A program made the translations under genes and the position numbers. Source: an uncultured Pseudomonadales bacterium (GTDB lineage Bacteria; Patescibacteriota; Microgenomatia; UBA1400; PJMF01). From it: a stretch of DNA of 64,000 bases. The notes under the pieces are model-generated. The model was not told the DNA's origin and made no database searches. It saw nothing but the letters and a program-made list of their open reading frames with translations. The stretch covers positions 55,598 to 119,597 of the forward strand of contig CAYSQA010000001.1 of assembly GCA_964433225.1 (NCBI GenBank), written 5' to 3'. Positions 20,107 to 61,358 of the stretch are shown here, piece after piece; within the stretch, counting starts at the first letter, position 1; every line of letters begins with the position of its first letter.

Positions 20107-20751
20107 CTAGTTAGCACTCTGAACTTTACCAATAGTCTGTCGATTTTGTTGAATTAACTGTGCTGTTTGTTGCTTCTTGGAACCAGCTGGCCCCACCGCT
20201 CCTTTTTTGGGGCTAGATGGTGGCGCAATCGAAGACTGCTTAGCAGCCTCTTCTTTTTGTTTCTGAGCTTGCTTGGCTTCCTCTTCAGCTTTCTGCCGCT
20301 GCATTTTCTCATGGTATTTTTTTTGAGCTACTTGTTTTTGCTCATCAGTAAGTTTGTTGAATCTTTCTAAAACTGATTGCTTTTGTTGTTTTTCTGCTGG
20401 AGTATCCTCGTTTTTAATCTCTAGTAAACTATGAAGACTAAAAAACCCTTTCAGTTCATCAAGCACATCTTTAACTGCTCTTTTGCCTTCTTCTTTAATG
20501 GTATCAACTTCTCTTGGCGGTTGTTTTTGGTGTGGTGTTTCCTGAGAAACACCACCTTGTTGAATGGCTGAACCACCAGTCGTTTGTTGAGCTGCATTGC
20601 TGGTTTGTTGAGTCAATTGATGTTGTTGAGAAGCTCCAGCTAAAGCCTGTTGTTCTAGGTGTTCTTCATTAAAATGGCCAAATCCAGAACGAAAGCCTCC
20701 TCCTTGCCTAGCAGCCATCCCTGGTTTTGATCCTGGCCCCGAACTCATCAT
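20107..20751 (-). CDS. hypothetical low-complexity Q/K/E/A-rich protein
   Basis: 214 aa with strongly biased composition. Directly follows the 116-aa acidic ORF (overlapping start/stop). Confidence 0.45.
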   Translation of the reverse strand: MMSSGPGSKPGMAARQGGGFRSGFGHFNEEHLEQQALAGASQQHQLTQQTSNAAQQTTGGSAIQQGGVSQETPHQKQPPREVDTIKEEGKRAVKDVLDELKGFFSLHSLLEIKNEDTPAEKQQKQSVLERFNKLTDEQKQVAQKKYHEKMQRQKAEEEAKQAQKQKEEAAKQSSIAPPSSPKKGAVGPAGSKKQQTAQLIQQNRQTIGKVQSAN

Positions 20752-20752
20752 T

Positions 20753-21103
20753 TTAAACCTTGGTATGTCCCAACTGTCTAATTTGGTACTGACTCTGTTC
20801 CTCTTGTTGATGGTGTTCTGTCTCGACTCGTTGTTCGTTTTGGGCTAATCTGGCCTGTTCTTGGGGAGTGTCACTAATTTTTTTCAAATTTTCAATTTGA
20901 GACTTAAGTTCTTCGGCATCTCTTTGCTTTTGCTGTTCTTCCAAAGCAATTATTTCTTGTTTTTTTTGTTCTTCGGCCACTGCTTCTGCTTGTTGCGACT
21001 CTTGGTTGTCACCAGCAAGTGGTTGATTAGCTCCAGCTCCCTTAGAATCTTGGAGTAGTTCTTCTAAAGCAGCTAATGGGTCTTGTTGTTGTGAATCTGA
21101 CAT
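20753..21103 (-). CDS. hypothetical acidic E/Q-rich protein
   Basis: 116 aa, compositional bias. Downstream of hpf in the same orientation. Confidence 0.4.
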   Translation of the reverse strand: MSDSQQQDPLAALEELLQDSKGAGANQPLAGDNQESQQAEAVAEEQKKQEIIALEEQQKQRDAEELKSQIENLKKISDTPQEQARLAQNEQRVETEHHQQEEQSQYQIRQLGHTKV

Positions 21104-33178: not shown

Positions 33179-34261
33179 TTAAAGCTTGGAAAACCACCAT
33201 ATGCCTTGCTCCTTAACCAAATTTTTTAGTTGTAAATTCAACAAACTTGTTTGTAAATCAACTATAGAGAGACGAGTTGCCATAAGTAACTCATCAAAAC
33301 AACAGCGCTTAGTTTGTAAAACTGCTAAAGTTTTCTGTTCATGTTCATTCAAAATCGAGACCAATTGATGATTTTTATCTGGAGAACCTAATAAAGTTTG
33401 TTCAATATCAGCTGGAACCCTCACCAAGCCAGCTCCTTGTTTAAGTAACTCTTGAACTCCTTCAGAGAAAGGACTAAAAATCGAACCTGGTACAGCCCAA
33501 ACATCTCGTCCTAGTTCAGCAGCAACTGTTGCTGTTAACAAACTACCACTATTAATAGCTGCCTCAATTACACACAAATCTTGTGAAAGACCAGCCACCA
33601 AGATGTTTCTAGCAGGAAAATTACCCGGTCTTGGTGCAACATGGGGAGCAAATGGAGAAATAAAACTAGCTCCTCGATTCAAAAAATCAACAAAAAGTCG
33701 TCGATGAGTCGCTGGATACATAAAATCAAAACCAAAACCTAAAACTCCAACTGTTTTCCCTCCAGAATCAAGTGCTGTTTGTTGAGCAATAACATCAACT
33801 CCATACATAAAACCAGAAATAATAACCCTGGTCATTGCCAAATCAGGAACCAAGAACTTAATTACTTGTTCACCATAAGGAGTAATCTTTCTTGTGCCCA
33901 CCACTCCCAAAGTTTGGTTTAACTCTAGTTTTCCACCTTTAACAAATAAAACTGGCGGATAAAAATCGAGATTCTTAAGTAAAACTGGATATTCTTGATC
34001 GTAATGAAACACTACCCGAATATTTTTGGCTAATAATTGCTGATAATATGAGTAACTATTATTTTCTTTTTTAAATCTAAAGATTGAGTTTTCAATCTTT
34101 TTATTTATAGATAAATTCTGCCAAATTGCACCCTTGTTAACCCAAAAATCGGTCTCAGTTACTTCGTGTTTAGTTAGGTAATTTAAAATTTTTAAATAAC
34201 GCTTAACACCCACTCCATCTAAAGAGTAAAGAGCTGTTCTAAATTCTCTGGAATAAACCAT
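33179..34261 (-). CDS. dprA: DNA processing protein DprA (Smf)
   Basis: Rossmann-like DprA core (GVVGTRKITPYG...ISGFMYGVDVIAQQ...). Conserved smf-topA adjacency. Confidence 0.85.
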   Translation of the reverse strand: MVYSREFRTALYSLDGVGVKRYLKILNYLTKHEVTETDFWVNKGAIWQNLSINKKIENSIFRFKKENNSYSYYQQLLAKNIRVVFHYDQEYPVLLKNLDFYPPVLFVKGGKLELNQTLGVVGTRKITPYGEQVIKFLVPDLAMTRVIISGFMYGVDVIAQQTALDSGGKTVGVLGFGFDFMYPATHRRLFVDFLNRGASFISPFAPHVAPRPGNFPARNILVAGLSQDLCVIEAAINSGSLLTATVAAELGRDVWAVPGSIFSPFSEGVQELLKQGAGLVRVPADIEQTLLGSPDKNHQLVSILNEHEQKTLAVLQTKRCCFDELLMATRLSIVDLQTSLLNLQLKNLVKEQGIWWFSKL

Positions 34262-34296
34262 TTAAACTCAAGATAGCAGATAAAAATGACAAGAAT

Positions 34297-36165
34297 TTAG
34301 TTTTCTAAACCAAGTAGCCACTGCCAAATTCCGTAGGCCACTGGTGCAGCATCTCTGGAGCCTTCCATAAAAGGTTGGTTATCATCACTCTCTACCAAAA
34401 CCACTATGGCAATAGTATCTGGAAAACCATGTAGCTTAATTTGCTGTAACCAATGTTGTTTTTCTTGAGCTAAATCTTTTTCTTCTTCTAAAGTGATATC
34501 AATAACTGGGGATTGTTTTGGACTAGTTTCTCCTAAAACTTTAAGTTGGGCTGCCACTAAATCATTAATCCCTCCCACTGTCATCGCAAACCAAGCATGA
34601 GTTCGACGATAACCTCTTTCATCTTCTCCACCAAACTCAGCTGTCCCTGTCTTACAAGCCACCACTCCATTACTAATCAATTTATTAGCTGGTAAATCCC
34701 CTACTTCGGCCAAACGTTGCTGGTTCCAAGAAAAAAACGGGTAGGCTGTTCCACCAGGGGAACAAGCTTCTATCATACCTTGTTCAATCGTTAAGAGATG
34801 GGTTTCAGTCGCTCCCAAAGTACTACATTTACTAGTGGCATCAGTAAATAAAGTAGGTTTACATAATTTACCACCATTACCAAAAGCTTGAACCATTTGC
34901 GCTTGTTGTAAAGGTGTAACCAACAAATCACCTTGCCCAATTCCCATATGAAAAGTATTGCCCAAAAACCATCTTTCACCCAAAGTTTTTTCTTTCCAAC
35001 TTGGGCTAGGAACTAAACCAGCTTTTTCACCTTTTAATTCAATGCCTGTTAATTGACCGAAACCAAGCTCTTCAGCTTGCTCCACCAAAGCCTCTACCCC
35101 CGTCCATTCAGCAGCTCGATAAAAGAAAATATCGTTACTTCTAGCAATTGCCTTGACTAAAGAAATCAGGCCTTCAGTTCGACCATATTGAGTGTAATAC
35201 CAGTTGGCATAACGATACTCACCCACTTCCAAAATTCCTTGATCATCTACCGAAGTTTCAGTGTCGAAAGCTCCTGTTTCTAAACCTGCTAGAGCAGTTA
35301 CTAACTTAAAAATTGATCCAGGAGGGTAGGTTCCATTGATGGCTCGATTAAAAAATAATTTTTTTTCATCTGCCAGATCCAGTCTAAGCTGATTGAGCTT
35401 TTGTTTTTGTTCAGTCTCAATATTAGAAGGACTAAACAAATTACTATTGAATGATGGTGTGCTGAGTAAGGTTAAAACTTGACCAGTATTAGCATCCAAA
35501 ATTACTACTGCTCCAGTTTTATTTTCCATTTTTTTCCAGGCTACTGTTGATAAATAAGGATCCAATGACGTAGTCAGATTTTTGCCTCTGACTGGTTCAA
35601 CCACCGTTGCTTCAGTTAGTTTTTTGCCTAAAGCATTAATTTCAAACTCTCGATAGCCTTTTCTTCCTTTAATCACCTCATCATAAGCAGCTTCCAAGCC
35701 TAGCCGACCAACTTGATCAGTAAGTTGGTAATTTTTCTGCTTTAAATCTTCGGCCGTCACACCAGTGACATAACCCAAAACATGCGATAAAGAAAATGGT
35801 CTTAAATAGTATCTTTGTAGGCTATAACCTACTTCATAAGGGTTAGCAACTTGTAAGGCCAAAGCTTCCTGTTTATTGAGGGGCTTTTTTTCTGGATAGA
35901 GAGCGGTTGGATCCAAAAGTTGGTAATATAATCGTTGATTAATTAATAATGGCTGCCCAAACCTATCAAGGAAAACTCCTCTTTCAGCCGGCATTTCTGC
36001 CCTAAAAACTCGATTTTGATGAGAAATATCAGCAAATTGACTGCCTTGAAAACCTTGCAAGTCAATCACCCTAAAAACTAATAAGCTTAAAGCAAATAAT
36101 AAACTCAAAAAAACAAACTGAACTAACTGACTTTTTCGTTGTTTTTCCATATTCTCGGCCACCAA
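34297..36165 (-). CDS. mrdA: penicillin-binding protein 2-type transpeptidase
   Basis: SIFK (SxxK), SND, KTGTAE motifs. N-terminal TM anchor. Sits downstream of mreCD. Confidence 0.85.
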   Translation of the reverse strand: MVAENMEKQRKSQLVQFVFLSLLFALSLLVFRVIDLQGFQGSQFADISHQNRVFRAEMPAERGVFLDRFGQPLLINQRLYYQLLDPTALYPEKKPLNKQEALALQVANPYEVGYSLQRYYLRPFSLSHVLGYVTGVTAEDLKQKNYQLTDQVGRLGLEAAYDEVIKGRKGYREFEINALGKKLTEATVVEPVRGKNLTTSLDPYLSTVAWKKMENKTGAVVILDANTGQVLTLLSTPSFNSNLFSPSNIETEQKQKLNQLRLDLADEKKLFFNRAINGTYPPGSIFKLVTALAGLETGAFDTETSVDDQGILEVGEYRYANWYYTQYGRTEGLISLVKAIARSNDIFFYRAAEWTGVEALVEQAEELGFGQLTGIELKGEKAGLVPSPSWKEKTLGERWFLGNTFHMGIGQGDLLVTPLQQAQMVQAFGNGGKLCKPTLFTDATSKCSTLGATETHLLTIEQGMIEACSPGGTAYPFFSWNQQRLAEVGDLPANKLISNGVVACKTGTAEFGGEDERGYRRTHAWFAMTVGGINDLVAAQLKVLGETSPKQSPVIDITLEEEKDLAQEKQHWLQQIKLHGFPDTIAIVVLVESDDNQPFMEGSRDAAPVAYGIWQWLLGLEN

Positions 36166-36566
36166 ATAACTCCCTTTGTATAAAAAATCAAAAAAAGAAG
36201 GCTTAAAATCGATTGAACCATTACCCCCATCGAGTAGTAAGTCAAACTAGTCACACTAGTTGTTACCACAATACTCAAATAAATTAGCCACCACCAAAAA
36301 CTTCTGATGTTTTGGTAAAGCCATAATACAATCAAAAAACTAAAGATTAACAGTAGTGAGTTAGAAAAAGCAGTACTTAGTAAAAAACTACTTATAATAA
36401 TTATTGCCCAAGCTGAAACCACTGATGATCTAACAATAATTTGCTGAAGAAAAAAGACGCTTAACCAAGGAAAACCAAACGTCGCTTCAAAAGAAACCAA
36501 AATCACCAATAAAACTAAATTAATTGATAAACGATAAAAGCTATTTAATTTCATTGAGTTGATCAT
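36123..36566 (-). CDS. mreD: rod-shape-determining protein MreD (putative)
   Basis: 147-aa polytopic membrane protein directly after mreC, overlapping the PBP2 gene. Confidence 0.55.
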   Translation of the reverse strand: MINSMKLNSFYRLSINLVLLVILVSFEATFGFPWLSVFFLQQIIVRSSVVSAWAIIIISSFLLSTAFSNSLLLIFSFLIVLWLYQNIRSFWWWLIYLSIVVTTSVTSLTYYSMGVMVQSILSLLFLIFYTKGVIWWPRIWKNNEKVS

Positions 36567-37342
36567 CTTATCTCCACAATTGAACTTTCAAAAAAAGACA
36601 CATACTGTTCAATAACTGCTGTTTGGACTGAACTTGCTAAATCTTGATTAATAAACGAAATTTGACCAAGCAAAACCCCTTGTTCAACTTGACTTTGTCC
36701 CAAAGTATAAATTTTTTCTCCCACCCTGAGTTGGTCGGTTTTATTTATTTCGGTAAATAAAATCTTTCTACCATCTCCCCTTACAATCCCTTCAACTCCT
36801 GATTCAGTTTTGGCCAAGATTGGAGTGGCTTCTTTTTCATGAAGCAAAACAACCTGAGACTCGTGCTCATTGATTTTACTTAATTGGCCAAGTAGTGTCT
36901 CCCGACTAATAACTAAAGCACCTGTTTCTAAATTAAGGTCTTTCCCGCCAGCCACAGCTGGTTTGGCCAATGAAACTACTGGTCTTGTCAGAACTGTTCT
37001 AGTTTGAGGCCGATCAGTATTTTCTAGTAAAAATCTAAGTTCTTGATTTTCCCTTTTTAAAGTTTCTAGCTCTGTTAGAGAGGCTGAGGCCACCGCTAAT
37101 TTCAATTCTAAATCCTGAATATGAACTGCATAGTTAAAAACCTTTTTAACTGAACTTGATTTTGAAACAAACTGATTAGTAAGCTGAACCCACCAATTTT
37201 TACTTGGTTCAATTAAACCGTGATAAATAGTTTGTTGAATCGGCCTAACCAAACCAGTAAGTTCCATAATCAAGATTACCCCACCAATTAAAAGAATCTG
37301 CTCCCAAGTAGTAGTCAGAAACAAATTCTTCTTCATAACCAC
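36563..37342 (-). CDS. mreC: rod-shape-determining protein MreC
   Basis: N-terminal TM, coiled coil (LKLAVASASLTELETLKRENQELRFLLEN), C-terminal beta-domains. Confidence 0.75.
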   Translation of the reverse strand: MVMKKNLFLTTTWEQILLIGGVILIMELTGLVRPIQQTIYHGLIEPSKNWWVQLTNQFVSKSSSVKKVFNYAVHIQDLELKLAVASASLTELETLKRENQELRFLLENTDRPQTRTVLTRPVVSLAKPAVAGGKDLNLETGALVISRETLLGQLSKINEHESQVVLLHEKEATPILAKTESGVEGIVRGDGRKILFTEINKTDQLRVGEKIYTLGQSQVEQGVLLGQISFINQDLASSVQTAVIEQYVSFFESSIVEIR

Positions 37343-38205
37343 TCTACTCCTTGCATCAAGTCAAACTCAGTTTTTAATCTTAATGATTTTTCACCCAAAT
37401 GATCTAGGCTTTTCTTGAAAAAATCATCTCCCAAAATCACCCATTTATCTGCGCCAATTTGTTTAAAAAGATTATTTTGCACGATAGAATCTAACTCTTT
37501 GGTAATTTTTCGTTGCAAAGAACTAGCAAGCGGTTCAACATCTTTAAAAAGAAAACTCATTGTTTGTAAATCTTTAGTACGACTATTTCTACCGCGAACA
37601 ACTAAAGAAAATTTTTCTCCTTGATTACCAATCTCTTGATACAAAGCAAAAGCTACTTTTTCTGCAAGTTCAAATAAATGTTTCTCTCTAAAAAAATAAA
37701 TCGTTTCATCAATCGCTTCTCTCAGTGAATAGTAAACTATAAAACTTTGCTGAGCAGCCCGATCAAAAACTCCAATTTCACTAATTTCTTGGCCAATATA
37801 CACAAAACTACCTTTGTCTAGGTCTTGCTTGGCTAAAAAAGCTCTAAATGCCGTAGCATAATTAATTAACTCAACACCAAAAAATCCGGCTTGTTTGAAT
37901 AGTTTGGTAAAAAGCTCTCTTTCCAGAGGAGAGCTATTGGTAGGAATAAAAATAATTGCTTTATTTCTAACCAATAAATTACCAAAATCGATGTTGTTTT
38001 CTTGACAAATTTTTTTAATACTAGCCAAAGCTTGAGTAAAATCTGCAACCTTGTTTTCAATAAAACCAGTGGCAGTATTAAATTGGTGAACCTTACGTTT
38101 TTTTGCAGTAACTACCAAAATACTCTGACCATTAATCCAAAATAGAGTCTGGGGGTTCTGATTATTTTGAGTAGAAAAAAACTTAAAACTAGGTAACTTT
38201 CTCAT
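37333..38205 (-). CDS. MreB-like actin-fold protein with degenerate nucleotide-binding motifs
   Basis: Sequence aligns block-wise with MreB: AIIFIPTNSSPLERELFTKLFKQAGFFGVELINYATAFRAFL matches the MreB phosphate-2/connect region, and VRGRN is conserved. DIGGGTTE is replaced by YIGQEISE, LTGGGALL by ILGDDFFK, and the N-terminal DLGTANT is absent. Sits in the mreB position upstream of mreCD. Confidence 0.6.
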   Translation of the reverse strand: MRKLPSFKFFSTQNNQNPQTLFWINGQSILVVTAKKRKVHQFNTATGFIENKVADFTQALASIKKICQENNIDFGNLLVRNKAIIFIPTNSSPLERELFTKLFKQAGFFGVELINYATAFRAFLAKQDLDKGSFVYIGQEISEIGVFDRAAQQSFIVYYSLREAIDETIYFFREKHLFELAEKVAFALYQEIGNQGEKFSLVVRGRNSRTKDLQTMSFLFKDVEPLASSLQRKITKELDSIVQNNLFKQIGADKWVILGDDFFKKSLDHLGEKSLRLKTEFDLMQGVEWL

Positions 38206-38251
38206 CTATCTGAGATTAGCAGACTTGAAACAAAATAACAAACCAACCAGC

Positions 38252-39178
38252 CTAAAGAGAATTCAGCAGTTTTGTGCCACTACGCCAACGACCAGCTTTA
38301 AAATGCTGCTCGGCTTCATCTAATTTCGTTTGGTCTTGGTTGTTCTGCTTGAAGCTTTCCCTAATTCCTACCAACCTTTCCCAAAGCATATCTTCTTTTA
38401 AAGCTAAAGCCTTCTCTAGCATGATCTCCTCAATATCTGGAACAAACTGCTCAATCTTCTCAATTAAAGCAGCTTGTCTCTTCTCTTCAGCCAAACTAAC
38501 ATCATTTTTAACCTTCTCGATTTCAGCCAATTCTGATTCAGTAACTAACAAAGCCAAATCTTTGGCCAAGAAATCATCCCACAAGGCTTGTTGGAGCTCA
38601 TCTAAAAATGATTCTTTTTCTTGGTCAGTGGCGTCACTTACTCCAAGTAAATCAAAAATGTTTTGTTCTTCAATACTTTCAGCCTCACTGACTGGCTGAT
38701 CAGCTTTAACTGACTCAGAAACAAGCGGTTGCTCAGCTTTGACTTTATTTTCCTCAGTAGCCAAAGCTTGTTCAAAACTAGTCAAAGAAACTTTGTCTGA
38801 AGCTGATTTCTCTTCTGGCTTGGCAGGTTGAGACCGCTTGGCCTCTGCCACTCGTTGTTTATATTTTTGTTCGTATGCTTCAAGAGCTTTTTCTAACTCG
38901 GCCAAAGGGTCAACTTGTTGAGCGGTCTGAATGGCCTCTTTAGTTTTATTTTCAGCCAATTGTTGCAAATTTTCGACATCAGCCAATTGCTGTGATTTTT
39001 GTTCATCTTTTTTAGTTTCAAATTCCGTCACTAACTCTTCTAGTTTTTTTAGTGGATCAAAATCAGCTTGCTTAGTGTTAGTCATTGGTTGAGAAGTGGA
39101 AGGCTGACTACCACTGGTAGGTGGAACATAAGAATCGACATAAGATTGGTTTTGATTGTTTAAGGCAGGATCTGACAT
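38252..39178 (-). CDS. hypothetical acidic coiled-coil protein
   Basis: 308 aa, E/Q/K/D-rich, predicted coiled coils. Upstream of the mre operon. Confidence 0.45.
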   Translation of the reverse strand: MSDPALNNQNQSYVDSYVPPTSGSQPSTSQPMTNTKQADFDPLKKLEELVTEFETKKDEQKSQQLADVENLQQLAENKTKEAIQTAQQVDPLAELEKALEAYEQKYKQRVAEAKRSQPAKPEEKSASDKVSLTSFEQALATEENKVKAEQPLVSESVKADQPVSEAESIEEQNIFDLLGVSDATDQEKESFLDELQQALWDDFLAKDLALLVTESELAEIEKVKNDVSLAEEKRQAALIEKIEQFVPDIEEIMLEKALALKEDMLWERLVGIRESFKQNNQDQTKLDEAEQHFKAGRWRSGTKLLNSL

Positions 39179-39274
39179 AGTTGTTGAAATAAACCTAGTT
39201 TTTAATGACTAACTAAATATAGCAGAAAATAGAACATTAGCTAAAGGCTCAATTGTGAGGTTACAATATAATCA

Positions 39275-41341
39275 ATGTTTATAAAAATCTTTAGTTTCCT
39301 CTATCACTGTCTGTTTTTAGTTACTCCTTTATTTTTTTTCTGGGGTAACAGTGAACTTTTCGAGTTAAATAAAATGTTATTTATTTATGTGGTAGCTGTT
39401 TTAGTTGCTGGTTTATGGTTAGTCAGATCAATTATCAATAAAAAAATTTATTGGAAAAATCACCCTTTAATCTGGTTAATTCTTACTTTTTTGGCTGGCC
39501 AAGTTATTTCCACTTTATTTTCTATCCACTGGCCAACTTCTTTGTGGGGTTACTATAGCCGACTCAATGGTGGCCTAATTTCTTCTCTAGCTTTTACTGT
39601 TCTAACTTTGGGTCTGTGGAATAATATTCCCAAAGAAAAACTACTTACTTTCTTTATTAGTCATGGTTTGGGTTTACTGTTAGTCAGTTTATATGCTTTA
39701 CCAGAACACTTTGGTTTTTCTCCTAGTTGCGTCCTACTTCACCAAACCTTTGATACCACTTGTTGGAAACAAGATGTCCAAACTAGAGTTTTTGGTACTT
39801 TTGGCCAACCAAATTGGCTAGCCAGTTATATTATTGGTGTTTTCCCCTTAGTGATTTTTCTTAGAGAACAATATAAAAACAAATTGCCCTGGTTAACAGA
39901 AATAACTTTAGTTATAGCTGGTTTAGTTGTTTGGTACACCAAATCTAGATCAGGTATTTTTGGCTTGATCCTAGTTGGTTTGTTAGTTGCTTTCCTTTAT
40001 TCATACAAAAAAATTAAAGTAATTAAAAAAATTTGGCAAAACAAACTCTTTTTGCCTTTTACCTTAATTTTCTCTATACTGGTAATAATCGTTGGCAGTT
40101 CTCTGCTCCACCAGAGGACACAAGACGATTTGCAACACCTTGACTTAGCCCAAGGTACTGATTCTTTTTCTATTAGAACTATTGTTTGGCAGGGAGCCAT
40201 CAAAGTGTGGCAACGCTATCCTTTGGTTGGTTCTGGACCAGCCACTTTTGCCTATAGTTTTTACCAAGATCGTCCTGCTCTACACAACCTAGTCTCGGAA
40301 TGGGATTTTTTGTATAACAAAGCTCACAATGAATTCCTCAACTATTTGGCTGAAACAGGTTTAATTGGCTTCTCTACTTATTCAATTTTTTTATTAGGCA
40401 CTCTCTATTTACTCTGGAAAAACGGTCATAAATACAAATCTTGGGCCAATTCAAGTTGGCTAGTGATGGTGAGTTTACTGGGTTTGTCTGCTGTCCATTT
40501 TTTTGGTTTCTCGATTGCTATCACTAACCTATTACTCTTCACTTTACCAGTGATTACGCTTAGTGATGACAACCAACTAGCAAAAAAAACCACAACTCAA
40601 CTTCCCCAAAAAGAAAGTTGGAAAATTACTAGTTGGTGGCAATACCTAGCTATCGTGCTAATAATCATAGTTGCCCTCAAATCACTAGTTTCACTGCTAA
40701 ATTTCTGGCAAGCTGACCGACTTTATAAAAAAAGCAAAGAACAACAAACATCGGCTCAATACTTGGCTGCGGCTAAATCTTTGGAACAGGCATTAGCATT
40801 ATCACCTCAAGAAGCACTTTTTTATGATGAGTTTGCCGATGTCTATAGCATCCTATCTTTTCAATATGGAGTAGTTAACAATCAAGAAGTTGCTCAACAA
40901 CTAGCTAAGGCTGCCATCGATAACTCTAACTACGCAATCTTGCTTAATCCTAGACACCTAAATTTCTATAAAACCAGAGCAAGAGTTTTCTTAGTTTTAG
41001 CTCAAAATGAACCAAAATATTATGTTGATGCTGAGCATACGCTGATTTCTGCCTTAGAATTAGCACCGACTGATGCCAAACTCTATTACAACTTAGGTTT
41101 AGTAAGAAAAGAAATGGCTAAAACCATCGAAGCTCAACAATCTTTAGAAAAAGCCGTAGAACTAAAACCCAACTATCTCAAAGCTAGAGAAGAGTTGGCC
41201 TCACTCTATGCTGAAACCAATCAACCCATTAAGTCTCTCGAGCAATTTTCCTTTATCCTCAGACATCTAGCCGTCGATGAAGCTAGTTTCTGGCAAAAAT
41301 ATTATCAAGTAGAAGCAACTGCTTCAGGAACAACTAACTAG
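39275..41341 (+). CDS. O-antigen ligase/polymerase (Wzy_C)-like membrane protein with C-terminal TPR repeats
   Basis: ~12 TM. Wzy_C-like periplasmic loop (NKAHNEFLNYLAETGLIGF). C-terminal TPR-like repeats (ALEQALALSP..., YYNLGLV...KAVELKPNY). Confidence 0.65.
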   Translation: MFIKIFSFLYHCLFLVTPLFFFWGNSELFELNKMLFIYVVAVLVAGLWLVRSIINKKIYWKNHPLIWLILTFLAGQVISTLFSIHWPTSLWGYYSRLNGGLISSLAFTVLTLGLWNNIPKEKLLTFFISHGLGLLLVSLYALPEHFGFSPSCVLLHQTFDTTCWKQDVQTRVFGTFGQPNWLASYIIGVFPLVIFLREQYKNKLPWLTEITLVIAGLVVWYTKSRSGIFGLILVGLLVAFLYSYKKIKVIKKIWQNKLFLPFTLIFSILVIIVGSSLLHQRTQDDLQHLDLAQGTDSFSIRTIVWQGAIKVWQRYPLVGSGPATFAYSFYQDRPALHNLVSEWDFLYNKAHNEFLNYLAETGLIGFSTYSIFLLGTLYLLWKNGHKYKSWANSSWLVMVSLLGLSAVHFFGFSIAITNLLLFTLPVITLSDDNQLAKKTTTQLPQKESWKITSWWQYLAIVLIIIVALKSLVSLLNFWQADRLYKKSKEQQTSAQYLAAAKSLEQALALSPQEALFYDEFADVYSILSFQYGVVNNQEVAQQLAKAAIDNSNYAILLNPRHLNFYKTRARVFLVLAQNEPKYYVDAEHTLISALELAPTDAKLYYNLGLVRKEMAKTIEAQQSLEKAVELKPNYLKAREELASLYAETNQPIKSLEQFSFILRHLAVDEASFWQKYYQVEATASGTTN

Positions 41342-41989
41342 ATGACTACTCAACAAATATTTGACCATTTTAATATTCCACCAGGTTTACAACAGCACAT
41401 GTATACCGTGGCTGGAGTTGGTAAATATATTACAGATAACTGGCTTGGAGAAAAAATTAATCAACAAGCAATAGTAACTGCACTACTAATCCACGATTTA
41501 GGCAACTTAGTTAAGTTCGATTTATCACCTGGAGCCAAAGTTTATGACCCAACTTTGGCTACTGATCAATGGCGTAAAAACCAACAAATAATGATTGAGC
41601 AATATGGTTCAGACGCTCACCAAGCCACCTTAATTATGGCCAAAAAAATAATCAGTGACCCCTTAGTTTTAAAGTTAATTAATAGTATGGATGCGACTAA
41701 CCTGGTTAAGACTTTCAACCAAAGCTGGGAAGAGAAAATTTGTGAATACGCCGACTTAAGAGTAACCCCATTTGGAATCACCTCTTTAGAAAACCGCTTA
41801 AACGACATCCACCAAAGATATAAACAACATTCCCAAGCCTGGGCTGATGAACAACTTTTAACCAAGAATAAGTCTTTTGGACAAAAAATTGAGCAACAGC
41901 TACAAACTAATACTAAAGTTGATATCATCACTATTCCAGCAGAAAAAATAGCCACTTATCTGGTAGAATTACCAGATTACCAAATTTAA
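41342..41989 (+). CDS. HD-domain phosphohydrolase
   Basis: HD motif (ALLIHDLGN). Confidence 0.55.
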   Translation: MTTQQIFDHFNIPPGLQQHMYTVAGVGKYITDNWLGEKINQQAIVTALLIHDLGNLVKFDLSPGAKVYDPTLATDQWRKNQQIMIEQYGSDAHQATLIMAKKIISDPLVLKLINSMDATNLVKTFNQSWEEKICEYADLRVTPFGITSLENRLNDIHQRYKQHSQAWADEQLLTKNKSFGQKIEQQLQTNTKVDIITIPAEKIATYLVELPDYQI

Positions 41990-41991
41990 AT

Positions 41992-42549
41992 ATGAAAATC
42001 ATTACTATTCCCCATCCAACTTTGCGAGAAAAGGCTAGCTTGGTGGAGAAAAATACCGATCAATTTAGCAAGTTTCTTGATGATTTAAAAGAAACTTTGC
42101 TTAATGCTGATAATCCCAAAGGAGTTGGCTTGGCCGCCCCTCAGGTCGATACTCTTTATCGAGTTTTCTTGACTTTGGTGGAGGATCACCAAAAAACTCC
42201 CCAAGAGTTTATTAATCCTGTTATCACTAAGCATAGTGACAAACAAACTTTCGGCCCAGATCCAGAAAATCCAAGATTAGAGGGCTGCTTATCAATGCCC
42301 GGCCTCTATGGACCAGTGCCTCGCTGGGAATGGGTAGAGCTTGAGTTTGAGAAAATCGAGAATGGTTTGTTTATTCCAGATAAACAAAAGTTTTTTGGCT
42401 TTCATGCCAGAGTTATCCAACATGAGATAGATCATCTGGACGGCATTTTATTTACTGACTATTCTCTTCAATATGACCTACCTGTTTATGTTGAAAAGAA
42501 AAAACAGCTAGTTGAAATCGAAGATCGTCGAGCTTTAGAGCTTTATTAA
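41992..42549 (+). CDS. def: peptide deformylase
   Basis: GVGLAAPQV, EGCLSMPG, QHEIDHLDG motifs. Confidence 0.9.
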   Translation: MKIITIPHPTLREKASLVEKNTDQFSKFLDDLKETLLNADNPKGVGLAAPQVDTLYRVFLTLVEDHQKTPQEFINPVITKHSDKQTFGPDPENPRLEGCLSMPGLYGPVPRWEWVELEFEKIENGLFIPDKQKFFGFHARVIQHEIDHLDGILFTDYSLQYDLPVYVEKKKQLVEIEDRRALELY

Positions 42550-42569
42550 TTAAGAACTCATAACTAAAT

Positions 42570-43454
42570 ATGTATAAAATCTGGATTGCCGGTTCTACTC
42601 ATCGCACCAAACAAGTCGCAGCAACTATTAAAGCTGATAAAAAATTCAGAATCGAGCTAGTGATGACTCCCCGACCTAGAAAAGTGGGTCGTAAACAAAT
42701 CACGACCATTAATCCTCTTCACCAGTTTGCTCTTGAACACCAAATCAAAACTGTTTTAGTCGATAAAAAAATTGATCAACAAGTTCACCAACAATTAAAA
42801 CAATTAACTCCACCAGATTTATTAATAGTGGTAGACTTTGGCTTTTGGATTCCAGACTGGTTATTAAAATTGCCCCAAAAAGCTCCTCTTAATATTCATC
42901 CTTCTCTTCTCCCTAAATGGCGAGGTAGTTCTCCAGGACAAAACGTCATTTTACATGGGGAAACTGAATCAGCGGTAACTTTGATGCAACTTATTAAACA
43001 AATGGATGCAGGACCTATTTTAGTTCAACTACCCTTTAAAGTTAAAGAAAACTGGAATAGTAATGATTATTATCAGTATGCCTTTGACTTAATTTGCCAA
43101 CAACTTACTACCTATTTAGTTGAGTTTTTAGAAGGAAAAATCACTCCCCAACCGCAACCACTTCACTCACCCACTCCTTTAGCCAGTAAAATTGCCAAAG
43201 ATCAGGCCTTTATTAACTGGGATGATTTAAGAAAAGCAATGGAAACAAATGAAAAAGCCAAACCAATAGAACGAGCGAGCAAAGCTTACTATCCATGGCC
43301 CAAACTTTGGACCAAAGTACCAACCAATAAGGGTGAAAAAAGATTAATTATTCACCAAGCTTCTATAAACAATACCAAATTAGTTTTGGACCAAGTTCAG
43401 TTGGAAGGCAAAGCTCTTACCAACTGGCAAGAAATTGAAAAGCAACTAGTCTAA
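42570..43454 (+). CDS. fmt: methionyl-tRNA formyltransferase
   Basis: SLLPKWRGSSPGQNVILHGE formyltransferase motif. def-fmt order. Confidence 0.88.
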   Translation: MYKIWIAGSTHRTKQVAATIKADKKFRIELVMTPRPRKVGRKQITTINPLHQFALEHQIKTVLVDKKIDQQVHQQLKQLTPPDLLIVVDFGFWIPDWLLKLPQKAPLNIHPSLLPKWRGSSPGQNVILHGETESAVTLMQLIKQMDAGPILVQLPFKVKENWNSNDYYQYAFDLICQQLTTYLVEFLEGKITPQPQPLHSPTPLASKIAKDQAFINWDDLRKAMETNEKAKPIERASKAYYPWPKLWTKVPTNKGEKRLIIHQASINNTKLVLDQVQLEGKALTNWQEIEKQLV

Positions 43455-48958: not shown

Positions 48959-48967
48959 TATTCATTG

Positions 48968-49040
48968 CAGGGCCACGAGGATTTGAACCCCGGCGAAAGG
49001 TTTTGGAGACCTTCATGCTACCAGCTACATCATGGCCCTA
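48968..49040 (-). tRNA. tRNA-Trp (anticodon CCA)
   Basis: Manual fold: acceptor AGGGCCA/TGGCCCT; D-stem ATGT/GCAT; anticodon stem AAGGT/ACCTT with loop CUCCAAA; T-arm CGGGG-TTCAAAT-CCTCG; discriminator G. 3' CCA not encoded. Confidence 0.8.
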
Positions 49041-49137
49041 GCTAATAGAGACTTATTATAACTGAAAATCACTAAGATTAAGGAGAAATTTACTCTCACT
49101 CTTGCCTCAAAACCAAAAAACATCTAGGCTAATATAT

Positions 49138-50526
49138 ATGCCCATGCTGAATAGTTCTCTCAGAAAAACCAAGAAATTAGATAGAAAATATTTAGCCAAA
49201 ACTAAATTTCCTTTCATTACTGTTTCTGGAACTTATCGTGAAGACCTTAAAGGCCTTCACCAACTTAAAGAAAATGATCTTACTAGAGATATTGTCCTCT
49301 CTAGAGCCCATTACTCAATGACCATTGGTGTAGCAGTAGAGGCCTGGAAAAACAAACTAGACCCTCATCAGGCTTGGATTGTTGATCCGACAAATTATGT
49401 GACCAACCAAAACTGGAAAACTATTATTATTACTGAAACAATCGGTAAAATCTTGGCTCGCTTTCCTTTGCTCAAAAAACTTAAAGACTTTGTCGATAAA
49501 TTCGGTCGCCAAAAACTACCTATTTTGGAAAGCATTAGACAACCATTAATCACTTTGACCAAAGATATTAATAAGCCGATTCTGTCTTTCCACATTGCTG
49601 CTGGAAATATTCTTTTAGATAAAGGAAAAACTGTTTTTCAAATGATTACCGACCCTCACGTCAGAGAAGACTACCTGGCTAATTGTGATAAAGAACATGC
49701 TTTCTATGGAGTTTTTGACGAAAAAACTAAACAAGAATTCCTGGAAAAAGCCGAAAAACTAGGTAAACCAGCCGATCCTAAAAGAGTGATTGTCACTGGT
49801 CCTCCAATTGATCCCAGAGTAATTGAGTCCAGAAACCACAAATCTCCCTGGAATAATAAAAAGCCACTTAGAATTTGTCTAACTACTGGTGGTTTAGGTA
49901 CTAATAAGCCAGAAATCAAACAAATCTTGACACAACTTTTACCAGAATTGAAAAAAGATCAACCTAGATTTGAATTGGTAGTTTATGCAGGCACTCAAGC
50001 CGATATCAAAAACATGGTTATTGATCTAGCCAGAAAAGCAGAAGTTAATTATGCAGAAATCAATCCTGTCGATCCGGCTCAGTTTGAGATAGGTAAGAAA
50101 GTCGCTCTAAAACCAGAATTATATAAACATTTTACTCAACCACTGAGAATCCTTTATCATCCGCAAATAATTGATGCTAACGAACTACTCATTGCGTACG
50201 GTTTCCCTTGGGCAGATCTATTTATTAGTAAACCTTCTGGAGATATGGCTTATGATGCTGTGGCTAGTGGAGCTGCGTTGCTAACTTTGGCTGAGTGGGG
50301 TGAATGGGAACACAATATTAAAGTTAAGTTTCAAGGTCATGAAGTAGCACAAGAAGCAAATGTTGAACAGATTGTTAAACAACTGGAAAAAATTACTCAC
50401 GCCACTCCAACAAAATCAGCCTGGATTCAACACGCTCAACATTTGGCTAGAACGATTGAAAAACATGACCAATACTTTATGGTTGGTGCCAAAAATATCT
50501 TAAAAACAACCGCAAAACTAAAATAA
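49138..50526 (+). CDS. GT-B-fold glycosyltransferase-like protein (MurG/MGDG-synthase-like), start uncertain
   Basis: C-terminal ISKPSGDMAYDAVASGAALLTL and RICLTTGGLGTNKP blocks resemble GT28. The ORF opens at TTG 49102; the first ATG at 49138 is used here. Confidence 0.45.
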   Translation: MPMLNSSLRKTKKLDRKYLAKTKFPFITVSGTYREDLKGLHQLKENDLTRDIVLSRAHYSMTIGVAVEAWKNKLDPHQAWIVDPTNYVTNQNWKTIIITETIGKILARFPLLKKLKDFVDKFGRQKLPILESIRQPLITLTKDINKPILSFHIAAGNILLDKGKTVFQMITDPHVREDYLANCDKEHAFYGVFDEKTKQEFLEKAEKLGKPADPKRVIVTGPPIDPRVIESRNHKSPWNNKKPLRICLTTGGLGTNKPEIKQILTQLLPELKKDQPRFELVVYAGTQADIKNMVIDLARKAEVNYAEINPVDPAQFEIGKKVALKPELYKHFTQPLRILYHPQIIDANELLIAYGFPWADLFISKPSGDMAYDAVASGAALLTLAEWGEWEHNIKVKFQGHEVAQEANVEQIVKQLEKITHATPTKSAWIQHAQHLARTIEKHDQYFMVGAKNILKTTAKLK

Positions 50527-50532
50527 AACTAA

Positions 50533-50560
50533 AAACCCCACCATTTGGCGGGGTTTAGAT
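50533..50560. terminator. bidirectional terminator between the convergent GT gene and rpmG
   Basis: AAAACCCCACCATTTGGCGGGGTTT hairpin with T-runs on both strands. Confidence 0.55.
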
Positions 50561-50577
50561 TAACAATTTAACAACTC

Positions 50578-50781
50578 TTATTTGAGTTTTTTCATCATTT
50601 TGTGTTCAGTATGTTTTCTACAGACATTACAGTATTTATTGATAGGAAATGTTCCTTGACCTTCTGATTGCTTCTTTAAAATGTCATTGTTTTTATTGTA
50701 TTCGGTCACATAACCAAAGTGTTTACACACTGTACATTGCAAACCTGCAATTTGTCTTGGTCCTTTTTTCTTTTTTGCCAT
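50578..50781 (-). CDS. rpmG: 50S ribosomal protein L33 (zinc-ribbon form)
   Basis: CTVCKHFGYVT...NKYCNVCRKHTEHK matches the C4-type L33. Confidence 0.8.
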   Translation of the reverse strand: MAKKKKGPRQIAGLQCTVCKHFGYVTEYNKNNDILKKQSEGQGTFPINKYCNVCRKHTEHKMMKKLK

Positions 50782-50829
50782 ATATCTCCTCTGAATTTGC
50801 TAGGCAGGTATTATATCACAACCTAATTC

Positions 50830-50902
50830 TGAGCCAACTGTGGGACTCGAACCCACGACCTACGGTTTACAAAACCGTTGCTCTACCAACTGAGCTAAGT
50901 TG
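50830..50902 (-). tRNA. tRNA-Thr (anticodon TGT)
   Basis: Manual fold: GCCAACT-TA-GCTC-AGTTGGTA-GAGC-A-ACGGT-TTTGTAA-ACCGT-AGGTC-GTGGG-TTCGAGT-CCCAC-AGTTGGC-T. Confidence 0.85.
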
Positions 50903-51037
50903 GCGGTAGAGTCGGCTCTAATGAGAGCCAATCATGTGCCAAGGGAAGGATTCACTGACTCAGGCTCGTTCTATACTTTAAAAATATAGGGCTCGCTTGA
51001 GGCAGTATAAACTTCTCATCCCACCTTTATATTATTT

Positions 51038-51065
51038 TAAAAATCACCAATGGTGATTTTTAAAA
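51038..51065 (-). terminator. hairpin plus T-run immediately downstream of tRNA-Tyr
   Basis: AAAAATCACC-AAT-GGTGATTTTT inverted repeat followed by a T/A-rich run on the minus strand. Confidence 0.45.
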
Positions 51066-51070
51066 CAATG

Positions 51071-51154
51071 TGCCAAGGGAAGGATTCGAACCTACGAAGG
51101 CGAAAGCCAGCAGTTTTACAGACTGCCCTGTTTGACCACTTCAGTACCTTGGCA
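51071..51154 (-). tRNA. tRNA-Tyr (anticodon GTA), type II with long variable arm
   Basis: Acceptor GCCAAGG/CCTTGGC. Anticodon stem GCAGT/ACTGC with loop CUGUAAA. Variable arm ~14 nt. T-loop TTCGAAT. Discriminator A. Confidence 0.8.
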
Positions 51155-51167
51155 TAACTAATTCTTG

Positions 51168-51240
51168 AGCCTTTGTCGGGGTTCGAACCCGAGACCTCAG
51201 TCTTACCAAGACTGCGCTCTGCCACCTGAGCTACAAAGGC
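51168..51240 (-). tRNA. tRNA-Thr (anticodon GGT)
   Basis: GCCTTTG-TA-GCTC-AGGTGGCA-GAGC-G-CAGTC-TTGGTAA-GACTG-AGGTC-TCGGG-TTCGAAC-CCCGA-CAAAGGC-T. Confidence 0.85.
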
Positions 51241-53721: not shown

Positions 53722-54147
53722 ATGGCAAAAAAAGTACAACAAGTTTTAAAGCTCAATCTACAGGGTGGTAGTGCCACTCCTGCTCCTCCAGTCGGTCCAG
53801 CTCTTGGTCAAACTGGGATTAACATGATGGACTTTTTAAAACAATATAATGATGCTACCAAAGATAAGCGTGGTCAGGTTATTCCTGCAGAAATCACTGT
53901 TTATCAAGATAAATCATTTACTTTTGTTTTAAAACTACCTCCAGTTTCTGACATGATTAAGAAAACCCTTAATCTTAAAAAGGGTAGCAGTAACCCAAGC
54001 AGAGAATCTGCTGGCACTTTAACTATGGATCAAGTAAGAGAAATTGCTCAAGAAAAACTTCCAGACCTCAATACCAATAGTATTGATAGTGCTATTAACT
54101 CTGTTAAAGGCGCTGCTAGAAGTATGGGAATTCAGATAAAGGAATAA
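53722..54147 (+). CDS. rplK: 50S ribosomal protein L11
   Basis: LQGGSATPAPPVGPALGQTGINMMDF signature. Confidence 0.9.
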   Translation: MAKKVQQVLKLNLQGGSATPAPPVGPALGQTGINMMDFLKQYNDATKDKRGQVIPAEITVYQDKSFTFVLKLPPVSDMIKKTLNLKKGSSNPSRESAGTLTMDQVREIAQEKLPDLNTNSIDSAINSVKGAARSMGIQIKE

Positions 54148-54151
54148 AACT

Positions 54152-54847
54152 ATGGGTAGCACAAAAAATGTAGACATGTCTAGCCAAGAAACTGAAGTCA
54201 AAGTCGTCGAGGCTCCTGATCAGGCTGACAAAAAAACAACAACAAAAACTAAAACTAGAACTCACAGCAAAAAATACGTAGCTGTTAAATCTAAAGTCGA
54301 TAAAACCAAAAAATATGATCTTTTGGCAGCTATTGAATTAGTCAAACAACTTTCTTACAGTTCTTTTGCTGGCACTATTTCTGCTGAACTAATGGTTAAA
54401 GAGGCCGGCGTTACCGCCGAGGTTACTTTGCCCCACCAAACAGGACAAAGCAAAAAAGTAGTAATCGCTAGTGATGAAGTCTTAAAAGATATTGAAGCAG
54501 GTAATATTAATTTTGATATTTTGATTAGTTCCCCAGATTTTATGCCCAAATTAGCCAAGTTTGCTAGAGTTTTAGGTCCAAAGGGTTTAATGCCAAATCC
54601 CAAAAATGGTACTTTAACTTCCAATCCAGAAAGAGCTATTAAAGAGTTGTCTGCTGGAAAAATGTTAATCAAAACCGAAAGAAAAGCTCCATTAATGCAC
54701 GTTTCTGTTGGTAAAGTCTCAATGGATAGTAAAGACATCAAAGAAAATATTGAAGCTTTAGTAAAACCAATAAAAACTAAACTCGTTAGACTAGCACTCT
54801 CAGCCTCAATGAGTCCGGGTGTTAAAGTTGATTTAGAAACTGTTTAA
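54152..54847 (+). CDS. rplA: 50S ribosomal protein L1
   Basis: 231 aa. KYDLLAAIELVKQ...RVLGPKGLMPNPKNGT L1 pattern. Confidence 0.9.
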   Translation: MGSTKNVDMSSQETEVKVVEAPDQADKKTTTKTKTRTHSKKYVAVKSKVDKTKKYDLLAAIELVKQLSYSSFAGTISAELMVKEAGVTAEVTLPHQTGQSKKVVIASDEVLKDIEAGNINFDILISSPDFMPKLAKFARVLGPKGLMPNPKNGTLTSNPERAIKELSAGKMLIKTERKAPLMHVSVGKVSMDSKDIKENIEALVKPIKTKLVRLALSASMSPGVKVDLETV

Positions 54848-54871
54848 ATTATTTTAATTTAATTGACATTG

Positions 54872-54905
54872 AAAGCCACCGTTTAAAATCGGTGGCTTTT
54901 TTTAT
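54872..54905 (+). terminator. rho-independent terminator after rplA
   Basis: AAAGCCACCG-TTTAAAAT-CGGTGGCTTT followed by TTTTTAT. Confidence 0.7.
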
Positions 54906-54978
54906 AAAAAACCTACTTATGTTGGATCAAATAACACCTTCGACCTAAAAAGAGAAAAAATTAAAGTACAATAGACCA

Positions 54979-55506
54979 GTGACAAATATTTCTAATTATA
55001 TTGTTGGAAAAAATAGAGACCAATATCTTGTTGGTAATGAATTAAATGGTGGGTTTTTATTACAAATGATTGAGTTTGCCCATACTGATCAACAGATTAT
55101 AGATCACACTTCTGATACTCAACGGTTTTCTTCTCTGGAAAACGCTCAAAAGTGGTTAAAAAAAGCTTCAAAATACTTTTTTACTCTTTCCCCTATTAAA
55201 AATCGAAATCATTTAGCCGGAATCATTTGGTTTGAAAACTTGGAGTTGCCCAAAATACTAAAAGATAAATATTCTACTAGTAATTGGACCTTTGGAATTA
55301 GAATTTATCAGTTTCACCGTGGCAATGGTTTGGCACTCCCATTTATGCAAACTGCTTTCAAAAAGTTCTTGCAACAATTTCCTCATCAACCAGTTTGGTT
55401 AAGCACTCAACTTAGCAATCAAACTGCTACAAATCTTTATCAAAAATTTGGTTTTAAAAAAATCGGTGAAGTTAACAATAAGGCTTACTTTTTATATGAA
55501 TCTTAA
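54979..55506 (+). CDS. GNAT-family N-acetyltransferase
   Basis: Motif A-like HRGNGLALPFM and C-terminal YQKFGFKKIGE. GTG start. Confidence 0.65.
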   Translation: MTNISNYIVGKNRDQYLVGNELNGGFLLQMIEFAHTDQQIIDHTSDTQRFSSLENAQKWLKKASKYFFTLSPIKNRNHLAGIIWFENLELPKILKDKYSTSNWTFGIRIYQFHRGNGLALPFMQTAFKKFLQQFPHQPVWLSTQLSNQTATNLYQKFGFKKIGEVNNKAYFLYES

Positions 55507-56412: not shown

Positions 56413-57038
56413 TTATATTTAAACTTTTTCAAGACTATTTGTTGCCACCAATCGTTCATATTTCTATTTACAATTGTTTTCCCAATTTTTTTGCCATATG
56501 TTGTTTTTAAAGAATTTTGAAAGTAATCTAACCAACCTGATGCCGCTTTAGTCCCGTTTTCTAGCAAGTTTTTATCAGTTAACATTTCATCCAAAATATC
56601 GGCCTCATGAACAATGATTGCTTCTTTTGTTTTTCCTTCTAAAAGTTCATTAAAAATAGCTAACCATTTATTTTTGAAAGAAAAATTACTCAATTGATCA
56701 TTTAAAGCTTTAGTTTCCTGATAATCTACATAACATTTATTGATTAAGTCTAAATCTCCAATTCTAGTTTCTGGCAAGTCATGAATAAGAGCCATTATTA
56801 ATAACTTACTTAAATCTATTTTTCTCTCTCTTTCGGCCAAAATCAACGAGATCATAGTTACTCTATAACTATGATCTGATATAGTTAGGTTATTATTTTT
56901 AACCTGACTTCTCTTAACTTTGCTTAGGTAAGCTATCTCAAATAAAAAATCTGTTAAATTGTTTAAAGATTTATTTTGTTTGGGCTCTTTAACCTTAAAA
57001 CTTTTTGAAAAAATTTTAAAAAAAAGATTCATTTTCAA
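56409..57038 (-). CDS. HD-domain 5'-(deoxy)nucleotidase, YfbR-like
   Basis: H (DHSYRVTMISL)...HD (ALIHDLPETRIGDLD)...D pattern, characteristic of YfbR-type HD nucleotidases. Confidence 0.65.
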   Translation of the reverse strand: MKMNLFFKIFSKSFKVKEPKQNKSLNNLTDFLFEIAYLSKVKRSQVKNNNLTISDHSYRVTMISLILAERERKIDLSKLLIMALIHDLPETRIGDLDLINKCYVDYQETKALNDQLSNFSFKNKWLAIFNELLEGKTKEAIIVHEADILDEMLTDKNLLENGTKAASGWLDYFQNSLKTTYGKKIGKTIVNRNMNDWWQQIVLKKFKYK

Positions 57039-58306: not shown

Positions 58307-58308
58307 AA

Positions 58309-58812: not shown

Positions 58813-58886
58813 TTTAACCTACAAGTAGTTATTGATTATATATTTAAGTCATAAATTATCCATGTTTAGTTGTTAAAATAGATTAT

Positions 58887-59753: not shown

Positions 59754-59794
59754 CAGCCCGCCTAACTCCAGGTACAATGGCTGTTATCTAGATT

Positions 59795-61357: not shown

Positions 61358-61358
61358 T

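Follow-up and report, generated by a model that had tools for sequence, protein, structure and literature searches.

In the prevailing view, MreB acts by forming filaments on the membrane that depend on nucleotide and give cell-wall synthesis its orientation; it is debated which of the MreB activities a cell cannot do without. The canonical MreB, Mbl and MreBH proteins (PF06723; PDB entries 1JCE and 4CZE) possess an actin fold, carry the VRGRN, EIG and S-P-x-E segments and have their gene at the head of an mreC-(mreD)-pbp2 operon. The E...T-X-[D/E] motif (E140, T167 and E169 in CcMreB) is found in 95.8% of MreBs and is needed for phosphate release (PMC9597168). The MreBs of the candidate phyla radiation (CPR, or Patescibacteria), a group of ultra-small bacteria, constitute two clades, both of which are held by three Parcubacteria and one Woesebacteria species (bioRxiv 10.1101/2020.05.13.095042). 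Here we describe, in a 64-kb stretch of Patescibacteria DNA (64,000 nucleotides of contig CAYSQA010000001.1, referred to below as the window), an mreB orthologue that encodes a protein of 290 amino acids (aa) with nearly all of its nucleotide-site motifs replaced. It shares with the canonical proteins the three segments named above, the position at the head of the operon and, in the predicted model, subdomains IA, IIA and IIB of the actin fold.

The 290-aa protein is an MreB homologue, with a similarity far past chance. The Pfam profile PF06723 (MreB_Mbl) matches it with 25.2 bits (E 8.7e-6), which does not reach the gathering threshold of 27 bits, and the NCBIfam MreBH profile matches it with an E-value of 1.4e-5. 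A family profile was needed for a match in the PDB, because single-sequence phmmer with the window protein returned chance matches only; the profile A1, built from 12 family sequences, retrieved MreB chains exclusively, the best of them being Caulobacter MreB (4cze, E 6.5e-8, residues 47-207 aligned to 66-232). Comparison by hhalign with the divergent CPR MreBs, which are the nearest full-length relatives, gave a probability of 99.3% and an E-value of 3.9e-20 over residues 45-243 (99.7% in global mode). When the AlphaFold2 model of the window protein was used as a query for Foldseek, the top 25 hits were all MreB or Mbl (E 3e-16 to 9e-13). The Pfam, NCBIfam, PDB-profile, hhalign and Foldseek results all point to MreB, in agreement with the sequence-only reading of this DNA, whose block-by-block alignment with MreB holds for the central region (residues 45-243, with VRGRN and EIG kept); the protein is also shorter than MreB, as that reading had stated (290 aa versus 334-365 aa). 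Other actin-like families (FtsA, PilM, ParM, MamK and Hsp70) were rejected: the Foldseek matches to the Hsp70 nucleotide-binding domain and to MamK start at about 1e-9, weaker than those of MreB and Mbl by at least six orders of magnitude, and there is no Pfam match besides MreB_Mbl.

The 290-aa gene is the positional orthologue of the operon mreB and not an added paralogue, because the full-length MreB-like proteins P0021 and P0019 hold the identical slot. This slot is bounded on one side by Fmt, Def and a Wzy_C/TPR protein encoded divergently from the mre genes; on the other side, it comprises a small acidic protein, the MreB-like gene, MreC, a membrane protein of 142-158 aa, PBP2 and DprA (TopA). 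Thus, synteny confirms the earlier assignment of the gene to the mreB position: it is the operon's own mreB. The occupants of the slot include P0021 of Ca. Pacebacteria (MBD3279854.1; 339 aa), which retains the motifs DFGSANT, DLGAQVTE and LTGGASQL, the full-length MreB_Mbl protein P0019 (349 aa), the degenerate P0029 (300 aa), and two distant family members, P0014 (276 aa, 30% identical) and P0005 (289 aa). Across these relatives, the motifs grade from intact to entirely lost, and the PF06723 score falls with motif loss, from 166.8 bits for P0021 through 30.2 for P0029, 25.2 for the window protein and 24.2 for P0012 to 15.4 for P0014. In a distance-based neighbour-joining tree with bootstrap, in which long-branch attraction is possible, the family is monophyletic (100%) and sister to P0029 (72%) within the long-branched divergent CPR MreB clade (73%). 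The slot orthologues, intact to fully degenerate, are a rare stepwise record of the passage from an ATPase to a pseudo-enzyme.

The five motifs of the actin-type nucleotide site (phosphate-1, connect-1, phosphate-2, adenosine and connect-2) were compared in MAFFT alignments of E. coli MreB, database MreBs and the family. Connect-2 is the sole one that is partly kept (EFDLMQG, D-x-x-x-G). In the phosphate-2 motif, DIGGGTTE of MreB is replaced by YIGQEISE: the Asp has become the invariant Tyr136, GG has become QE and Thr has become Ile, with G138, S142 and E143 alone retained. The HMMER alignment of the family profile gives the same pairing, MreB VVDIGGGTTEVAV with family FVYVGQEISEIGVF (DIGGGTTE with YVGQEISE). 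In connect-1, LIEEP corresponds to LINYA, without a conserved acidic residue; the catalytic Glu of MreB (E140 in CcMreB) has given way to another residue, and the nearly invariant Tyr116 lies at or beside that position. The ribose/adenine contact (GGD) reads YYSL in place of IGGD, the adenosine motif ILGDDFFK in place of LTGGGALL, and the phosphate-1 motif D-x-G-T-x-x-T is absent. With regard to E...T-X-[D/E], the E140 position has no conserved acidic residue (N/K-Y-A/E), T167 is replaced by I, A, L or V, and the final Glu (E143) alone is kept. Besides connect-2, VRGRN, EIG and the S-P-x-E segment are retained from MreB. Several former cleft positions now hold an invariant residue that is aromatic or bulky (W23, Y116, Y136 and F262/F263), which suggests from the sequence that the nucleotide cleft has been filled by these side chains. 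The phosphate-2 and adenosine replacements are those that the sequence-only reading had noted, and its worry that the motifs had been misaligned is removed by the profile and structure-based alignments, which show real replacement.

The missing segments were read from the secondary structure of two AlphaFold models, that of the window protein (mean predicted local distance difference test score, pLDDT, 80.9; predicted template modelling score, pTM, 0.66) and that of P0021, its nearest full-length relative (pLDDT 87.2, pTM 0.84). The P0021 model has an N-terminal helix (3-12), strands beta1-3 (25-49), a subdomain IB of four elements (strands 52-55, 60-64 and 80-82 and helix 65-74) and, after it, a long helix (93-108). 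The model of the window protein starts with a disordered tail (1-15), followed by beta1-3 (19-41), a short hairpin and then directly the long helix (56-69); thus, P0021's four IB elements have no counterpart in it, and three of the subdomains IA, IB, IIA and IIB are recognizable. Beyond the long helix, the helices and strands of the two models correspond one-to-one, which argues that the actin fold core (IA, IIA and IIB) is kept; for instance, strand 254-258 at the adenosine motif matches strand 299-302 of P0021. Relative to P0021, the models predict that the window protein lacks the N-terminal helix and about 35 residues at the tip of IB, as well as a loop of IIB and the C-terminal tail. The comparison of N-termini rests on predicted structure because the first 44 residues are unalignable by sequence: MAFFT and global hhalign placed them inconsistently relative to phosphate-1, with near-zero confidence. 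Residues 19-41 are devoid of the D-x-G-[ST]-x-x-T motif; hence the earlier statement that phosphate-1 has no counterpart stands for the sequence, whereas the beta1-beta2-beta3 sheet that carries the motif is still predicted there. The N-terminal tail takes the place of P0021's predicted helix; it is charged +3 in most members, Pro is common in it, its hydrophobic moment is 0.2-0.6, and the model gives it no helix and a pLDDT below 50. Judging from its composition, the tail may bind the membrane.

Exhaustive HMMER search of 1.84 billion representatives returned 35 matches altogether, of which 7 clusters with E-values of 4e-19 or better constitute the family; after a gap, the next matches are MreB-like proteins of about 340 aa (E 3.7e-10 and weaker). 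A word-indexed search gave 11 clusters of 289-291 aa. Among 185,579 GTDB species genomes, four carriers were found: JBMORP01 (99% identical, same species as the window), CAYPPX01, JABHWM01 (SI047_bin131) and MNZB01 (Ca. Pacebacteria CG2_30_36_39). All complete members, which come from several environments, have intact open reading frames (ORFs) of 276-292 aa, and the alignment of 12 sequences contains 72 invariant columns. The ratio of nonsynonymous to synonymous substitution rates (dN/dS) of the 290-aa gene against four relatives is 0.12-0.23, compared with 0.11-0.19 for mreC and 0.09-0.16 for pbp2, these values being upper bounds as dS is saturated; the ratio indicates purifying selection on the 290-aa gene. 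Since the fold is predicted to be kept, the gene is under purifying selection and its overlap with mreC persists, the protein evidently still does something. MreB usually evolves far slower than MreC; here, the reverse is seen at depth, where the pseudo-MreB is the least conserved of the three proteins, with 30% identity in L010 (MreC 46%, PBP2 58%) and 19% in L009 (MreC 39%, PBP2 47%). This reversal fits a history in which nucleotide binding and polymer contacts ceased to constrain the protein and a new, still strong constraint then arose within the family.

Two observations concern the genomes of the carriers. Between window positions 33179-43454 and the same-species metagenome-assembled genome (L005, JBMORP010000002.1), synonymous divergence is very uneven across 10 kb: 0.012 for the pseudo-MreB, 0.034 for DprA, 0.17 for PBP2, 0.36 for Wzy, 0.44 for Def and 0.57 for Fmt, which suggests a recombination mosaic. 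The locus L006 (CAYPPX010000002.1) is syntenic with the Patescibacteria window, with proteins 55-88% identical, and its record is titled 'uncultured Pseudomonadales bacterium'; the bin looks mislabelled.

The 290-aa gene thus descends directly from the mreB at the head of the mreB-mreC-(mreD-position)-pbp2 operon of a Pacebacteria-related lineage of Patescibacteria. We propose that the nucleotide site decayed stepwise in a fast-evolving CPR MreB branch. In the 290-aa family it is gone: the phosphate-1, catalytic Glu, phosphate-2, GGD-contact and adenosine positions have all changed, in most cases to an invariant residue that is aromatic or bulky, and in the models the IB tip and the N-terminal helix are deleted while IA, IIA and IIB are kept. 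The resulting protein would be unable to bind or hydrolyse ATP or to make the canonical longitudinal contact of MreB, and it would serve as a static cytoplasmic scaffold or adaptor that holds or positions the elongasome components (MreC, the MreD-position protein and PBP2) at the membrane. From the sequence and the models, we regard the description of this mreB descendant as a nucleotide-independent, non-treadmilling and probably non-polymerising scaffold or adaptor of the elongasome as the best explanation, with a confidence somewhat above even. That it is moreover the cell's only MreB-derived protein, organising the elongasome without nucleotide binding or dynamic filaments, is possible though doubtful.

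Several points weigh against this proposal. Despite the low E-values, the Foldseek template modelling scores of the window model are 0.43-0.47, with a root-mean-square deviation of 8-9 Å, so that the predicted domain arrangement either differs from that of crystal MreB or is imprecise. The N-terminal tail, which could provide a membrane anchor, is weakly amphipathic. The state of the cleft and that of the filament interface are both deduced from sequence and predicted secondary structure. Some actin-fold proteins polymerise without hydrolysis, so that polymerisation in the absence of nucleotide is conceivable here. Finally, a second, unlinked MreB may be present elsewhere in the genome, an eventuality that we consider unlikely yet by no means negligible.

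Such a second copy is the premise of an alternative in which the 290-aa protein is the regulatory partner of a nucleotide-competent MreB encoded elsewhere, whose filaments it would cap, nucleate or tether to MreC and PBP2; the cell would then have a conventional rod system to which a pseudo-enzyme subunit has been added. Active proteins often retain a degenerate paralogue as their partner, as exemplified by TsaB/TsaD and the Arp subunits. The existence of two CPR MreB clades, with a few species having both (bioRxiv 10.1101/2020.05.13.095042), is in line with this possibility; furthermore, the more canonical clade (P0061 and P0064) is encoded away from mreC, near PEGA and sortase genes, and thus an unlinked copy is a known arrangement. 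However, by synteny the gene stands where the operon has its own mreB, and the reported species with both clades number only four. Moreover, no other MreB-like sequence was detected by tblastn with seven queries (E. coli MreB and six database MreBs) in the 64-kb window, and within 10 kb on either side of the gene in four related genomes (20-kb loci) tblastn found the pseudo-MreB gene alone; a canonical mreB in the vicinity, which would have made the gene a simple paralogue, is absent from these regions. As weak further evidence, none of the best 120 of 1415 matches to a CPR-MreB profile lies on a contig as long as one of those known to bear the family. On balance, we consider a partner role rather unlikely.

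Sampled CPR MreBs provided two further observations. In L015 (7001-8005) and L016 (7001-8011), the MreB of the more canonical clade adjoins a divergent PEGA-domain protein, with a sortase and the glutamyl-tRNA synthetase GluRS nearby, a layout that amounts to a second conserved MreB neighbourhood in CPR. Both sampled clades (P0018-P0028 and P0026, P0053, P0061, P0064 and P0067), and thus more than the degenerate family alone, are devoid of the catalytic Glu before the connect-1 Pro, the EEP of connect-1 being replaced by SKA, NKN, ETP, QAP and similar; judging by these residues, CPR MreBs may generally be slow hydrolysers, among the approximately 4% of exceptions to E...T-X-[D/E].

The 290-aa protein could also still form filaments, either nucleotide-free or through new contacts, and thus provide a static cytoskeletal track for the elongasome. 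Much of the filament interface of MreB resides in IA, IIA and IIB, and their predicted retention is compatible with this, the strongly conserved surface-like motifs EKFSLVVRGR and EFDLMQGVEWL could mark self-association, and Spiroplasma MreB3 polymerises despite its catalytic defects. However, MreB3 binds nucleotide, whereas the binding motifs are all gone in the 290-aa protein; the IB tip, which is part of the longitudinal contact, is deleted in the models; and MreB polymerisation is nucleotide-dependent (PMC9597168). We therefore judge a filament-forming role improbable. The view that the gene is a decaying, functionless, pseudogene-like remnant, as the sub-threshold Pfam score, the loss of all catalytic motifs and the faster divergence than its neighbours at depth might suggest, is rejected on dN/dS, which equals that of mreC and pbp2, and on conservation (the invariant columns, the intact ORFs of constant length in several environments and the maintained mreC overlap), and since a streamlined genome is expected to delete dead genes, we regard it as highly improbable.

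The coordinates of the gene, its segments and its neighbours are given in the table below. The minus strand of the window between 30.9 and 39.2 kb is a tight gene row that extends from the gene of the 308-aa protein through topA. The start of the 290-aa ORF is the first start codon after a stop, and therefore the ORF is the longest reading possible. The gene lies directly upstream of mreC, as originally reported, and overlaps it; the overlap is not the 8 nt given at that time, being 10 nt with GTG 37342 as the mreC start and 4 nt (ATGA) with ATG 37336. An overlap is kept across loci (10 nt in the window, L001 and L010; 4 nt in L012), and the order mreC-membrane protein-PBP2 downstream of the 290-aa gene is conserved in all related loci. 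The mreCD-PBP2 operon of the sequence-only reading is confirmed by profiles for mreC and PBP2; mreD is assigned by position, as the MreD profile (PF04093) matches neither the 147-aa window protein nor its five orthologues (L001, L009, L010, L012 and L013) at E-values up to 10. Thus, "mreD" is here a positional label, based on position, size and membrane character. The PBP2 translation, read directly, contains S-I-F-K, S-N-D and K-T-G, so that the S-x-x-K, S-x-D and K-T-G motifs are kept.

Table. Location of the pseudo-MreB gene, its segments and the neighbouring genes in the 64-kb window (residue numbers refer to the 290-aa protein).
Feature	Coordinates	Strand	Description
Acidic protein	38252..39178	-	308 aa; adjoins the mreB slot upstream
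Pseudo-MreB ORF	37333..38205	-	290 aa; stop codon 37333-37335
N-terminal tail, residues 1-18	38152..38205	-	MRKLPSFKFF..., basic and aromatic, net charge +3; predicted disordered
Former phosphate-1 hairpin, residues 19-41	38083..38151	-	Predicted beta1-beta3 of IA; L21, F22, W23 and G26 invariant
IB junction, residues 42-47	38065..38082	-	About 35 residues of subdomain IB predicted absent here
Former connect-1, residues 113-123	37837..37869	-	LINYATAFRAF; MreB LIEEPMAAAIG
Former phosphate-2 segment, residues 134-147	37765..37806	-	FVYIGQEISEIGVF; MreB counterpart VVDIGGGTTEVAV
VRGRN, residues 203-207	37585..37599	-	MreB subdomain IIB motif kept; R204, G205 and R206 invariant
Former adenosine motif, residues 255-263	37417..37443	-	WVILGDDFF; MreB MVLTGGGAL; one Gly kept
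C-terminus, residues 280-290	37336..37368	-	EFDLMQGVEWL, almost invariant; connect-2 counterpart; no MreB C-terminal tail
mreC	36563..37342	-	PF04085, 55 bits
mreD-position gene	36123..36566	-	147-aa polytopic membrane protein; no Pfam match; kept in every related locus
PBP2 (mrdA)	34297..36165	-	TIGR03423, 387 bits
dprA, topA		-	Beyond PBP2 in the gene row

The gene upstream of the mreB slot always adjoins it in the clade (L001 9084-9959, L009 4261-4872, L010 7024-7935 and L013 5420-5971, in addition to the window). Its product consists of a disordered, acidic and Q-rich N-terminal part of variable length and a conserved C-terminal domain of about 140 aa with the pattern EEQNIFxLLGV...FLDELQQxxWEDFL...IEEIMLEKALELKEDM...LLNSL. 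Pfam and PDB searches found no relatives of the 308-aa window protein, nor of the mreD-position protein; the 308-aa protein is possibly a partner of the mre genes that has not been described before. Elsewhere in the window, the G+C content decreases from 0.34-0.41 to 0.28-0.33 in the region 54000-64000, where genes resembling those for nucleoside/nucleotide salvage, transporters and a carbamoyltransferase-like gene were recognized by eye; this region may be an acquired island. Two adjacent ORFs of 214 and 116 aa (20107-21103, minus strand) encode low-complexity, Q/E/K-rich proteins, and Pfam matched the 214-aa one to no family significantly. Rfam matches in the window are confined to four tRNA genes on the minus strand (48967-51240; Trp-CCA, Thr-TGT, Tyr-GTA and Thr-GGT).

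The family also has consequences for annotation, as its score lies just under the Pfam threshold, and it complicates the inference of rod shape from MreB presence. Such inference has been made for metagenome-assembled genomes of Patescibacteria (PMC8672522, PMC11809585). Even where a member of the 290-aa family is called MreB, that call is probably no sign of a conventional rod system.

Compared with canonical MreB, the window protein has lost the intact set of five nucleotide-site motifs and E...T-X-[D/E], about 35 residues of IB (as predicted) and the C-terminal tail, scores below the Pfam threshold, and evolves faster than MreC and PBP2, not slower. The divergent CPR MreB clade (P0021, P0019 and P0018), which is one of the two reported (bioRxiv 10.1101/2020.05.13.095042), is closest to it both in the profile comparison (E 3.9e-20) and in the tree, shares its slot and neighbours and likewise is without the catalytic Glu. 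However, the proteins of this clade are 337-356 aa long with a full IB and an N-terminal helix, reach 167 bits on PF06723, and keep phosphate-1 (D-x-G-S-x-x-T), mostly phosphate-2, the GG and the adenosine motif. The nearest case described is Spiroplasma MreB3 (7E1C and 7E1G), in which the loss of E...T-X-[D/E] makes phosphate release very slow (PMC9597168). The two proteins have the loss of catalytic residues in common, and MreB3 sets the precedent of an MreB that functions while hydrolysing inefficiently; however, MreB3 binds nucleotide, keeps four subdomains and polymerises alongside four other MreBs in a wall-less swimmer, whereas the 290-aa protein has lost its entire nucleotide site and belongs to a peptidoglycan operon. 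A search of the open-access literature found no account of an MreB orthologue in which that site is completely erased. The cytoplasmic domain of GspL/EpsL and TsaB (YeaZ) have kept the actin/ASKHA fold for protein-protein interaction, with nucleotide binding and a subdomain lost; the likeness is one of principle and not of descent, as these proteins belong to other branches and have other partners (type II secretion and tRNA t6A synthesis, respectively). Within MreB itself, the 290-aa protein, whose elongasome operon is otherwise intact, offers a natural case on which the idea of a scaffold that needs no filaments can be tested and, if it is the sole MreB of the cell, a natural experiment that separates the scaffold role from ATP-driven polymer dynamics.

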